Below, in pieces: positions 44,731 through 46,500 of a DNA stretch of 64,000 bases. The notes beneath the pieces are model-generated. The model saw only the letters and a list, made by a program, of their open reading frames with translations, ran no database searches and was not told the origin of the DNA. The translations under genes were made by a program, and so were the position numbers. Numbering within the stretch: the first letter of the stretch is position 1; every line of letters begins with the position of its first letter. Source of the stretch: Clostridia bacterium (GTDB lineage: Bacteria > Bacillota > Clostridia > TANB77 > CAG-508); the NCBI GenBank assembly GCA_045643205.1, contig JAZUKI010000007.1, positions 32,001 to 96,000 of the forward strand, in the 5' to 3' direction.

Positions 44731-44822
44731 TTTCTATGCACCTCCCTGCTTTTTTTACATGCTAGCCATATAATATTAACATAAAAGCATAATAAAATCA
44801 AGCAATTTATATAGTTTTTTTC

Positions 44823-44858
44823 AAAAATTTGGAGCCCCTATCAAAAGATAGAGACTCC
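44823..44858 (-). terminator. Terminator of the beta-CASP gene
   Basis: GGAGTCTCTATC-TTTT-GATAGGGGCTCC (with G:U pairs) followed by AAATTTTT. Confidence 0.7.
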
Positions 44859-44888
44859 GTTAGGTACTTTCCTATTTAAGAAAATACC

Positions 44889-46416
44889 ACCACCACTGAC
44901 ACATTAAAAAAGATTACATTGTTCCTGATACTTCTATCTTTGCATCTCTAGAACTTACTCTTAAAGGATTTGTCGAAACCATATGCATTTATCCGAACAG
45001 CATTTTCACGATCAAGTATGAAGATATCTTTTGGTGATATTTCTCTTTTAACATCGCGTCCAAACTGCTCTTTGGTTTCTGCTTCGCCGTGATTGATTAT
45101 TAATAACTTTATCTGACTAAATTTAGACAAATAGTCAATTAAATCATTTTCACGGATATGGCCAGAAAATTCATCTGTATATTCTACAGTAGCTTCCTTC
45201 CTAACCATTCTGCCATTAAGATAAACATCAGTCCCATTTTCCACTTCTTTTAATCTATCTCCTACAGTACCTTCAGTACAATATCCGCTAAAGTGAATTA
45301 AAGCATCTTTCTCTTTAACGTAGTGCTGAATATAGGATGAAGCTATTCCATGTGTTCCCATTCCTGAACTGCAAAGAATAATTTTAGGTTCTTGCGAATC
45401 TTTTATTGCTCTCCGCTTTGTTTTTATGTTCCCATCAATAAAATGGAAATTTTCAGGAAGAAACTCTACCATAGATGACTTTATACTCAAGCTTCCATTT
45501 AAAAACATCTTTGTGTAAGCTATTGCGAGTTTGCCATCCAGATAAATTGGAATCCTAGGATCTAATAGTTTTTCTTTTTGCATCTCCTTCAGAGTATACA
45601 AAACTTCCTGCACTCTGCCTAAACTGAATACAGGTATTATTACATTGCCACCTTTGTTTATCGCTCTAGCTACATTTCGCTTAAATACAGGCTGTCCTAA
45701 TGTTTTCGTATCACCATATGTACTCTCTGTTATAAGAGTTACAGGTAATTCTCGAATCCATTTTGGAACACTAGTGTCTTCCAAAAACAAATTGTTTTCT
45801 TTTAAATCACCAGTAAAGAAAATATTGATATTTTCAAAACCTTCATAGCTAATTTGTACTAAATAAGAAACGGCCCCAATAAGGTGGTTGTTTTGGATTG
45901 CAGTAACAGTTACATTTTCATGCGGCTGAAACTGTTCGCCCATGGTTATAGGCTGAAGATGGCTGATGACATTACAAATCTCACTTTCTCCATAAATTGG
46001 TTTTTCATTTTTTCCTTCTGCTGCACTCTCTAGTATTCTACCACAATCTTCTAAAGCAAGCGGTAAAAGTTTGCAAGTATCCTGTGATGCATAATACTTC
46101 CCAGGATAACCTTTTTTTGCAAGCAATGGCAATCGTCCTGTATGATCAACATGATTATGTGTGACCAGAACAAAAGCTAAATCGTCTGCATAAAATGGTA
46201 AAGTTTTATTAAGTTCCTGATACTTTTTTTCATGGTACAATCCACAATCAACCAGAAACTTAAACTTTTCTCCATTTGGTAATCTTACAACACAAAAAAT
46301 GCAACTTCCAGTAACTTCAGGATGTAAGGCCATAATGTCACAATATAAACAACCATTTTTTTGATTATACCTACCCATATATTCCCTTCTCCTTTCATGT
46401 ATGTGTCAGCGGTGGT
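44889..46416. repeat. 16-bp inverted repeat pair bracketing the beta-CASP gene (44889-44904 and 46401-46416)
   Basis: accaccactgacacat versus the reverse complement of atgtgtcagcggtggt; 15/16 identical. Confidence 0.9.
44948..46378 (-). CDS. Metallo-beta-lactamase/beta-CASP nuclease (CPSF73/YSH1-like)
   Basis: VTGSC, LVDCG, THNHVDH, NHLIGA, TGD, ESTYG, FSLGR, FSGH, NHGE. Confidence 0.92.
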   Translation of the reverse strand: MGRYNQKNGCLYCDIMALHPEVTGSCIFCVVRLPNGEKFKFLVDCGLYHEKKYQELNKTLPFYADDLAFVLVTHNHVDHTGRLPLLAKKGYPGKYYASQDTCKLLPLALEDCGRILESAAEGKNEKPIYGESEICNVISHLQPITMGEQFQPHENVTVTAIQNNHLIGAVSYLVQISYEGFENINIFFTGDLKENNLFLEDTSVPKWIRELPVTLITESTYGDTKTLGQPVFKRNVARAINKGGNVIIPVFSLGRVQEVLYTLKEMQKEKLLDPRIPIYLDGKLAIAYTKMFLNGSLSIKSSMVEFLPENFHFIDGNIKTKRRAIKDSQEPKIILCSSGMGTHGIASSYIQHYVKEKDALIHFSGYCTEGTVGDRLKEVENGTDVYLNGRMVRKEATVEYTDEFSGHIRENDLIDYLSKFSQIKLLIINHGEAETKEQFGRDVKREISPKDIFILDRENAVRINAYGFDKSFKSKF

Positions 46417-46457
46417 ATATCAAAAAACGTAATTAGCATCAATGCTAATTGTATGTA

Positions 46458-46486
46458 AGTATACCATGAAAAGCCCGTATGCACAA
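46458..46486 (-). promoter_or_regulatory. Promoter of the beta-CASP gene, overlapping the upstream terminator
   Basis: TTGTGC-N17-TATACT with an extended -10 TG; the -35 lies in the loop of the 46469-46500 hairpin. Confidence 0.6.
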
Positions 46487-46500
46487 TACATACGGGCTTT
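46469..46500 (-). terminator. Terminator after the flavin reductase gene
   Basis: AAAGCCCGTATG/CATACGGGCTTT stem. Confidence 0.75.

Follow-up and report, generated by a model that had tools for sequence, protein, structure and literature searches.

The transcription unit

The window, which is the whole 64,000-nucleotide stretch analysed, belongs to a genome of 1.008 Mb (G000). Its minus strand carries a gene for a β-CASP protein flanked by two complementary arms, one in the 5' UTR and one in the 3' UTR. The locus was compared with L004, from the same-genus relative G018, and with L044 and L043, metagenome contigs that have a G018-type locus. The minus-strand layout that the original prediction had claimed around the gene could be read directly in the sequence. 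The unit runs from promoter through 5' hairpin, 5' arm, Shine-Dalgarno (SD) sequence, CDS, 3' arm and an 11-bp hairpin to the terminator:

46458-46486, minus strand: promoter, with a -35-like TTGTGC (46486-46481), TG (46466-46465) and a -10 TATACT (46463-46458)
46450-46431, minus strand: 5'-terminal hairpin, DNA AATTAGCA/TGCTAATT (sequence; full-transcript MFE)
46416-46401, extendable to T46417, minus strand: 5' arm (U)ACCACCGCUGACACAU, DNA ACCACCGCTGACACAT (sequence, duplex folds)
46396-46389, minus strand: Shine-Dalgarno GAAAGGAG (sequence)
46378-44948, minus strand: CDS of 476 aa, β-CASP (ORF, Pfam)
44904-44889, extendable to G44888, minus strand: 3' arm AUGUGUCAGUGGUGGU(G), DNA ATGTGTCAGTGGTGGT (sequence, duplex folds)
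44888-44863, minus strand: 11-bp hairpin adjoining the 3' arm (MFE)
44858-44831 (element 44823-44858), minus strand: intrinsic terminator, 12-bp stem and T-run (terminator scan)

The promoter is placed within the terminator of the upstream gene, in the descending arm, and its extended -10 is retained in G018 and L044 as TGATATAAT. It was absent from the output of a consensus promoter scan of the window because its -35 matches at just 3 of 6 positions. The 5' hairpin, which the earlier reading had also claimed, is present in the MFE fold of the full transcript; its RNA is AAUUAGCA-UUGA-UGCUAAUU and begins about at the predicted transcript start. G018 and L044 have a 9-bp version that contains a bulged C and differs at the top of the stem (AGC/GCU). 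An AU-rich single-stranded spacer separates this hairpin from the 5' arm, whose end lies 4 nt from the SD in G000 and 0-1 nt from it in G018-type loci.

The 3' arm begins 44 nt past the stop codon. The 11-bp hairpin next to it could possibly stack coaxially on the helix formed by the arms. At the same site L004, L044 and L043 have shorter hairpins, and an extra helix of 4-7 bp (GACUG/AGUC type) closes a three-way junction there. The terminator expected downstream of the 3' arm was found, with 12 pairs, and is retained in L004, L044 and L043.

One RNA-library contig spans 45649-46429 and includes the 5' arm; the 3' arm lies under no RNA contig. The RNA contigs of run X2 end at 46429 and 44931, so that neither the 5' hairpin nor the 3' arm is covered. 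These stops are no evidence of processing because contigs cannot show ends.

The encoded enzyme and its origin

The 476-aa protein matched the Pfam families Beta-Casp (5.8e-24), RMMBL (5.1e-08) and Lactamase_B_2 (3.4e-08), all above cut-offs, and its best relatives in the PDB are an archaeal CPSF homologue (2xr1, 1.8e-38) and TTHA0252 (8e-36). Residues D44, H74, H76, D78, H79, H165, D191, E218, H407 and H430, which we take to be the catalytic motif residues, are identical in G000 and G018. Judged by its sequence, the gene product is a β-CASP metallo-β-lactamase RNase of the CPSF73/TTHA0252 type. The domain set and the catalytic motifs are common to it and to TTHA0252 and the CPSF73-branch RNases; unlike the proteins of this comparison set (PMC4229858, PMC8501993), it has 476 aa and lacks KH domains. 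Two equivalog assignments were rejected, Cas14 (type VII CRISPR) at 225 bits against an NCBIfam cut-off of 800 and aCPSF1/FttA at 202 bits against 580.

The composition of the gene is foreign to its genome. The CDS has 34.6% GC against a mean of 28.9% (top 1.7% of 423 long ORFs), and 42% of its Arg codons are CGN, compared with 9.8% (top 0.7% of the same ORFs). In the G018-type loci the CDS has 41-43% GC and the flanks about 30%. The GC content and CGN codon share in G000, and the GC content in the G018-type loci, agree with the earlier proposal that the CDS was acquired, and horizontal acquisition of the gene is supported by this compositional evidence.

Close orthologous loci were found only in G018 (L004), L044 and L043. 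Their proteins are 67-68% identical to that of G000, and the gene order flavin reductase / β-CASP / rpmB is common to all these loci. Within the genus only G018 has an orthologue of more than 50% identity, while 17 of 44 genus genomes have one at E <= 1e-100. A family-wide search of 400 genomes and G000, with G018 outside the draw, gave no further orthologue at E <= 1e-150. The metagenome scan found no relative when the single G000 protein was the query, and 80 loci when a two-protein alignment was used. The β-CASP gene stands upstream of rpmB-GH18 in 2 of 30 genus loci (G000 and G018), and GH18 is present in 26 of the 30; the other genus members with rpmB-GH18 offered no informative "empty site".

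The complementary arms and chance

The arms ACCACCGCTGACACAT and ATGTGTCAGTGGTGGT pair at all 16 positions in the sense RNA, through 15 Watson-Crick pairs and one G:U. They are 1.5 kb apart and bracket the whole 1.43-kb CDS. With up to 3 mismatches allowed, the arm pattern has 2 matches in the window where 0.14 are expected, and 3 of 100 shuffles reached 2. The arm sequence occurs at just these 2 places in the whole G000 genome.

As a class, such repeats have no genome-wide significance, and chance alone could yield this one. The class was defined by at least 15/16 matches, a G+C count of at least 8 and an arm spacing of 200-3000 nt. Forty simulated dinucleotide-Markov genomes contained a mean of 0.575 such repeats, with at least one in 17 of them, and the real genome contains 2. 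The other is a pair of 16-mers on C3 that appear tRNA-like, judged by sequence only. In a ranking of 696 crude G000 gene calls by pairing between 5' flank and 3' flank, the β-CASP gene comes first, by a narrow margin (43 against 42 and 41) over runners-up that are AT-rich gapped matches. Since the repeat alone is within chance, only its conservation shows more than chance.

Conservation and covariation of the helix

The helix is 16-17 bp long in G000 and about 16-21 bp in G018, L044 and L043. The arm sequences differ and the duplex energies across the four loci are nevertheless -30.2, -32.5, -31.7 and -27.7 kcal/mol. Per-sequence duplex folds were mapped onto the columns of the 5' arm, giving a table of 17 columns. 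Both-sided changes are found in 6 of these (columns 3, 4, 6, 11, 14 and 17), with a series A-U / G:U / G-C in column 14, and two or three further columns, including 1 and 8, change on one side via G:U. No internal pair is broken by substitution in the 4 loci, which represent 3 lineages. The remaining UTR sequence has diverged, including an indel of ~75 nt; outside the transcription unit identity is ~90%.

MAFFT could not bring the inner half of each 3' arm into one shared structural register, and the tool count is therefore limited to the outer 7 pairs. Three of these have both-sided changes, and 92.9% of the cells are paired, compared with 23-73% in slid registers. The covariation score was reached by 1 of 500 shuffles. 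In a crude null in which 6 random substitutions were made in the 3' arm, full 17-pair complementarity to the 5' arm of G018 survived in 0 of 1,000,000 trials.

Folding of the predicted transcripts, one of the checks suggested with the original prediction, kept the closing helix. It is present in the full-length MFE folds of 4/4 transcripts, with pair probabilities in the full-length ensemble of 0.87-1.0 in G000, 0.88-1.0 in L004 and 0.81-1.0 in L043. Read in the sense of the mRNA, both mismatches are G:U; they would be C-A if the other strand were transcribed. The second check, for compensatory changes in related loci, likewise came out in favour of the claimed pairing on the transcribed strand: the arms covary through compensatory and G:U-mediated changes in three lineages, and no internal substitution breaks a pair. 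The two arms are thus very probably the strands of a selected RNA duplex that joins the 5' UTR and the 3' UTR.

A chance match with no function is barely credible. The expectation of 0.575 comparable repeats per genome, with one or more in 17 of 40 simulated genomes, would allow it, but the complementarity has persisted through at least six double changes in three lineages, and the arms fall exactly in both UTRs of one gene, the one ranked first of 696.

The arms might instead act at the DNA level as inverted repeats, either the ends of an invertible segment or relic terminal repeats of the cassette in which the gene arrived. The foreign composition of the gene would suit such an origin, as would a distant orthologue, L079, in which a 45-nt inverted repeat of 82% surrounds the whole cassette of promoter, gene and terminator. 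This explanation is nonetheless very unlikely. The arms lie inside the transcription unit, where the 5' arm is preceded by the predicted extended -10 promoter and the 3' arm is followed by the predicted terminator, and their mismatches, G-T at the DNA level, differ between lineages while the pairing persists. The arm sequence has no further copy in the G000 genome. The β-CASP CDS is the sole long ORF that the arms enclose; there is no recombinase or transposase between them. DNA contigs that cross an arm (X1 records 4 and 6, X3 records 13 and 15, X4 record 19) are colinear with the window in 5 of 5 cases and have no joints, although contigs can hide rare variants. The inversion or transposon behaviour against which the original prediction had cautioned was therefore not seen: the DNA contigs have one orientation and no joints, and further copies of the arm sequence are absent.

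A scan for 5'/3' helices covered 65 distinct orthologue loci, each compared with 10 shuffles of itself. Within the clade, G000, L004, L044 and L043 all exceed every one of their own shuffles; L079, with its inverted repeat around the cassette, was treated as a special case. The helix is absent from the 61 other loci scanned, which are at 35-50% identity; L068 (33 against 31) and L106 (28 against 26) were marginal, AT-rich gapped matches and were not credited as carriers. The helix is therefore a young, clade-limited feature, carried by three independent lineages only.

Comparison with rRNA precursors

The original prediction had read ACGTTTTTTGAT as a boxA and the unit as a layout like that of an rRNA precursor. 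The boxA is not conserved, G018 having AAAATTCCGACTG at that place, and without it the rRNA-like layout is unsupported; the analogy therefore rests only on the presence of a stem. An Rfam search returned no credible family, its best E-values (0.21 and 0.36) both being on the opposite strand, and the G000 assembly contains no 16S gene. Mini-III of B. subtilis prefers an ACCU motif, and the arms have no conserved ACCU.

As in the processing stalks of rRNA precursors cut by RNase III or Mini-III (PMC6582327), the stem is made of sequences flanking a cargo, and G000 has genes for RNase III (C6:18522-18899) and a Mini-III-like enzyme (C10:4774-5067). Unlike in those stalks, the cargo is an mRNA and boxA is not conserved. 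We consider it quite unlikely that the helix is an rRNA-style excision stem on a protein-coding mRNA, one that would form only in the finished transcript and might be read by the encoded RNase. A double-strand cut would then release a "panhandle" mRNA with its trimmed ends still paired or even joined. If this were true, one structure would set the fate of the acquired nuclease's mRNA, possibly as a self-limiting circuit.

Possible function of the helix

The duplex is tentatively interpreted, at slightly short of an even chance, as a cis-acting element of post-transcriptional control, with entry of RNase III as the favoured route and masking of the SD as a possible addition in G000. Both arms are outside the reach of translating ribosomes in 4/4 loci, and the helix can therefore persist on a translated message. 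RNase III, which is specific for double strands and has a gene in G000, is judged the most likely effector, with a probability somewhat under one half. One staggered cut in the helix would strip the hairpins from the two ends, the 5'-terminal one and that of the 3' terminator, and would leave the coding part exposed to decay in both the 5'-3' and the 3'-5' direction. Such decay would hold expression of the foreign nuclease low. The terminal hairpins at both mRNA ends fit a destabilising cut of this kind, without proving one. RNase III substrates typically have about two helical turns, and the 16-17 bp of G000 are shorter unless stacked on the adjacent hairpin.

A further effect may operate in G000, where the U-run beside the 3' arm could mask the SD in the manner of icaR. 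The SD is predicted to pair with the U-run at 44913-44906 once the 3' UTR exists. By thermodynamic prediction, its unpaired probability is 0.89-1.0 when the transcript stops short of the U-run and 3' arm, and falls to 0.08-0.47 at full length. In L004 the predicted unpaired probability of the SD is unchanged by the 3' UTR, and SD masking is therefore not a conserved feature.

The same RNA-level evidence, the folds and the covariation, would also suit a helix that is never cleaved and serves as a protective or translational "panhandle". It would block access by RNase J (5'-3') or an endonuclease once the 5' hairpin is gone, or tune access of the 30S subunit to the SD. The helix is very stable for a genome of 28% GC and stops short of the SD by 4 nt in G000 and by 0-1 nt in the G018 type, the AU-rich spacer leaves a single-stranded stretch between hairpin and 5' arm, and hbs provides a precedent (PMC5737220). 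With a 5'-terminal hairpin and a terminator already there, extra end protection would seem redundant. Such a panhandle is possible and the less probable reading beside RNase III entry.

The encoded RNase might itself attack its own mRNA by 5'-3' exo or endo activity, or be excluded from it, with the helix as autoregulatory target or shield. The product appears to be an RNase-type β-CASP protein with intact catalytic residues, and among G000 genes the helix is confined to this one; autoregulation of this general kind is known for the mRNAs of rnc, rne and pnp. Against such a circuit, β-CASP RNases act on single-stranded RNA and are not known to act on duplexes, and orthologues at 35-50% identity are without the helix. 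Autoregulation is rated unlikely.

Relation to known mRNAs with paired UTRs

Pairing between the two UTRs of one message is known for few bacterial mRNAs, and these were found experimentally in model organisms. Pairing of the 5' UTR with the 3' UTR of icaR in Staphylococcus aureus gives an RNase III substrate (PMC3868564). The icaR pairing covers the SD via UCCCCUG, whereas the conserved helix described here sits just upstream of the SD and is a near-perfect duplex of 16-21 bp; SD masking is predicted in G000 and is not conserved, and the case is known from sequence alone. In hbs of Bacillus subtilis a 14-bp interaction between 5' and 3' UTR modulates RNase Y cleavage in the leader (PMC5737220). 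That interaction and the present helix are both long-range duplexes between the two UTRs of one short transcription unit, and an effect on ribonuclease access is a feature of hbs; unlike hbs, the present helix is longer and encloses a 1.43-kb CDS. Firmicute RNase III substrates include duplexes of mRNA segments hundreds of nucleotides apart, and the arms here are likewise predicted to pair over a long distance. In the part of that work considered, pairs were sought within 1 kb and are not described as UTR-to-UTR, while the present arms stand 1.5 kb from each other, with the entire CDS between them.

Closure of an mRNA from UTR to UTR is a form of control in bacteria that is rare but has been described before, and the case of this clade is new. 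It was found in an uncultured gut Firmicute with a small genome. Its reach is limited because one small clade alone carries the helix. The covariation support and the clean architecture of terminal hairpin, closing helix, hairpin and terminator make the β-CASP mRNA a compact test case for two questions: how RNase III, RNase Y or RNase J process "closed" mRNAs, and how a cell restrains a newly acquired nuclease gene.

Layout of the transcription unit

Comparison of homologous loci shows, at the level of sequence, a selected RNA duplex that joins the two predicted UTRs of the beta-CASP mRNA. The unit lies on the minus strand; its promoter elements were read from the sequence.

Beta-CASP unit, window positions in transcript order
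46486-46481, minus: -35-like TTGTGC, in the descending arm of the upstream flavin-reductase terminator
46466-46458, minus: extended -10, TGG-TATACT
46450-46431, minus: 5' hairpin AAUUAGCA-UUGA-UGCUAAUU, approximately at the expected transcript start
between 5' hairpin and 5' arm, minus: AU-rich spacer, 13 nt
46417-46401, minus: 5' arm (U)ACCACCGCUGACACAU
46396-46389, minus: SD GAAAGGAG, 4 nt after the 5' arm
46378-44948, minus: beta-CASP CDS, 476 aa
after the CDS, minus: 43-nt 3' UTR stretch including a U-run (44913-44906)
44904-44888, minus: 3' arm AUGUGUCAGUGGUGGU(G)
44888-44863, minus: 11-bp hairpin abutting the 3' arm
44858-44831, minus: terminator, 12 bp
44730-44533, minus: rpmB gene, with its promoter, downstream of the beta-CASP terminator

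The beta-CASP promoter sits within the flavin-reductase terminator hairpin (window 46458-46500), a block near-identical in another species genome of the genus (G018) and in a metagenome locus, L044. The rpmB promoter and ~40-nt leader (TATGGCTAGCATGTAAAAAAAGCAGGGAGGTGCATAGAAA; window 44731-44800) are almost identical in the window genome (G000), L004 (the G018 beta-CASP locus), L044 and a second metagenome locus, L043, unlike the adjoining 3' UTR, which has diverged among the four. The L28 gene may have a conserved leader element here.

The "boxA" of the rRNA-like layout, originally read between hairpin and stem, is not conserved in G018, and there is no Rfam family match. The G000 assembly, though rated 100% complete, has no 16S rRNA gene; its rRNA operons are presumably unassembled. 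Outside the window, contig C3 of G000 carries a 15/16 inverted repeat (~80026-80041 and 81272-81287) flanking a 375-aa ORF (C3:80110-81237). It contains TTATCCACA/TGTGGATAA, the DnaA-box consensus, and so may mark a replication origin.

Conservation of the closing helix

Taken alone, the repeat exceeds chance only weakly. In G000, 15 of the 16 arm positions form Watson-Crick pairs and the one left over is a G:U in the sense RNA; the 16-mer occurs only at the two arms in the whole genome (1.008 Mb, 28.3% GC). Genomes simulated to its dinucleotide content held a mean of 0.575 inverted repeats of this class, with at least one in 17 of 40. The gene ranks first of 696 for pairing between 5' and 3' flanks, by a small margin with crude gene calls and a simple score.

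Among other genomes of the genus only G018 has an orthologue above 50% identity (67%; remainder ≤48%), and 400 sampled family genomes gave no further one at E ≤ 1e-150. A metagenome scan added L044 (68%, near G018), L043 (68%, a third arm type) and 78 loci at 35-50%. The four close loci share the order flavin reductase, beta-CASP, rpmB, GH18. Their arm pairs are UACCACCGCUGACACAU with AUGUGUCAGUGGUGGUG in G000, UACUAUCGCUAACGCACACAC with GUGUGUGUGUUAGC-A-GAUAGU in G018 and L044, and AUCACCGC-UA-GCACACAC with GUGUGUGCGCGGUGAU in L043, with helix energies of -27.7 to -32.5 kcal/mol.

The pairings were tabulated on 5'-arm columns. The original prediction of selection for pairing called for compensatory changes in homologous loci, and these were found: columns 3, 4, 6, 11, 14 and 17 changed on both sides, column 14 running from A-U through G:U to G-C, columns 1 and 8 changed on one side via G:U, and no internal pair was broken by substitution in the four loci. 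In L043, four positions of the 3' arm and two of the 5' arm have been lost, leaving a UA bulge. The automated count covered the outer seven pairs, the sole part that MAFFT aligned in a common register: three changed on both sides, 92.9% of cells were paired against 23-73% in slid registers, and 1 of 500 shuffles reached the covariation score. In a crude null model of six random 3'-arm substitutions, none of 1,000,000 trials retained all 17 pairs. The loci are ~90% identical outside the transcription unit and their UTRs have diverged, with a ~75-nt indel; what is conserved is therefore complementarity, not sequence. On this comparative evidence the closing helix of the acquired beta-CASP RNase mRNA is real and conserved.

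DNA repeats as an unlikely alternative

That the arms are instead DNA inverted repeats, for example of a rare inversion, keeps a small residual probability, as contigs may conceal rare forms. Against it, DNA contigs crossing an arm in three runs were all colinear with the window, in one orientation, with no joints or arm variants. The arm sequence has no other copies in G000, no recombinase lies between the arms, and arm mismatches are G:U solely in the mRNA sense.

An RNA-library contig from run X2 follows the CDS and departs from the window at 44931, 17 nt past the stop and upstream of the 3' arm, with 34 unlike letters; a DNA contig from run X3 sharing its SNPs continues straight on. Chimeric assembly, strain variation and an RNA junction are all candidate explanations for the departure. 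The distant metagenome locus L079 (45% identity) has a 45-nt, 82% inverted repeat (L079:1313-1357 and L079:2932-2976) that brackets the whole promoter-gene-terminator cassette outside the transcription unit, whereas the G000-type helix lies within it. This repeat, present at 1 of the 61 loci scanned, could be the signature of a cassette that moves or recombines.

Origin of the gene and helix

Three domains, Beta-Casp, RMMBL and Lactamase_B, were identified in the protein. Among solved structures its nearest relatives are archaeal CPSF homologues and TTHA0252 of Thermus, a homologue with 5'-3' exo activity (PMC4229858). It scores far under the equivalog cut-offs of Cas14 and aCPSF1, and a separate RNase J-like paralogue is encoded elsewhere in G000.

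The G000 CDS stands out in composition. Its GC content of 34.6% compares with a mean of 28.9% and falls in the top 1.7% of 423 long ORFs, while CGN accounts for 42% of Arg codons rather than 9.8% (top 0.7%). The contrast with flanks is greater in G018-type loci (L004:1501-2931, L044:1501-2934, L043:65-1501), at 41-43% GC, 42-46% GC3 and flanks of ~30%. Such composition fits a foreign gene under amelioration, most advanced in G000. Among close loci beta-CASP is 67-68% identical, below every neighbour compared (flavin reductase 92-93%, L28 89%, PBP 82-83%, GH18 76-80%). Other genus members have rpmB-GH18 without it upstream, the gene being present at 2 of 30 loci. From composition, low identity and patchy presence, the gene, originally suggested to be acquired, looks to have entered the common ancestor of this small clade. 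All 61 remaining distinct ortholog loci scanned lack the helix, which therefore probably arose with the acquisition or later.

Folding and possible function

Folding of the predicted full-length transcripts (1.6-1.7 kb) placed the helix in the MFE structure of all four loci. Ensembles were computed for G000, L004 and L043, with pair probabilities of 0.87-1.0, 0.88-1.0 and 0.81-1.0, respectively. G018, L044 and L043 add a 4-7 bp helix (GACUG/AGUC type) past the small 3' hairpin, forming a three-way junction. Since the 3' arm starts 44, 117, 120 and 91 nt beyond the stop codon in the four loci and the 5' arm terminates upstream of the SD, translating ribosomes should leave the helix closed.

Adding the 3' UTR lowers the predicted unpaired probability of the G000 SD from 0.89-1.0 to 0.08-0.47, by pairing with the U-run beside the 3' arm. 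Such masking is not predicted in L004, whose start codon is under a local hairpin either way. This hairpin, AUGGU-GAAAA-ACCAU (L004:1482-1503, also L044 and L043; absent in G000), overlaps part of the SD as well as the first two start-codon bases, with or without the 3' UTR.

G000 encodes RNase III and a Mini-III-like gene. B. subtilis RNase III cleaves long-range intramolecular mRNA duplexes (PMC11780869), and in icaR the pairing of 5' and 3' UTRs can generate a target for RNase III and prevent initiation (PMC3868564). Terminal hairpins are predicted at both ends of the beta-CASP mRNA; a double-strand cut in the helix would remove both together and destabilise the message. We tentatively favour this function, at somewhat short of an even chance. 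A purely protective or translational panhandle ranks below it as rather unlikely, because both ends already carry hairpins; in hbs, a non-cleaved 14-bp 5'/3'-UTR duplex modulates RNase Y (PMC5737220). That the encoded RNase regulates its own message is conceivable, though unsupported and improbable. The closing helix joins a known, sparsely populated class of 5'UTR-3'UTR pairings, and is confined to a tiny clade.
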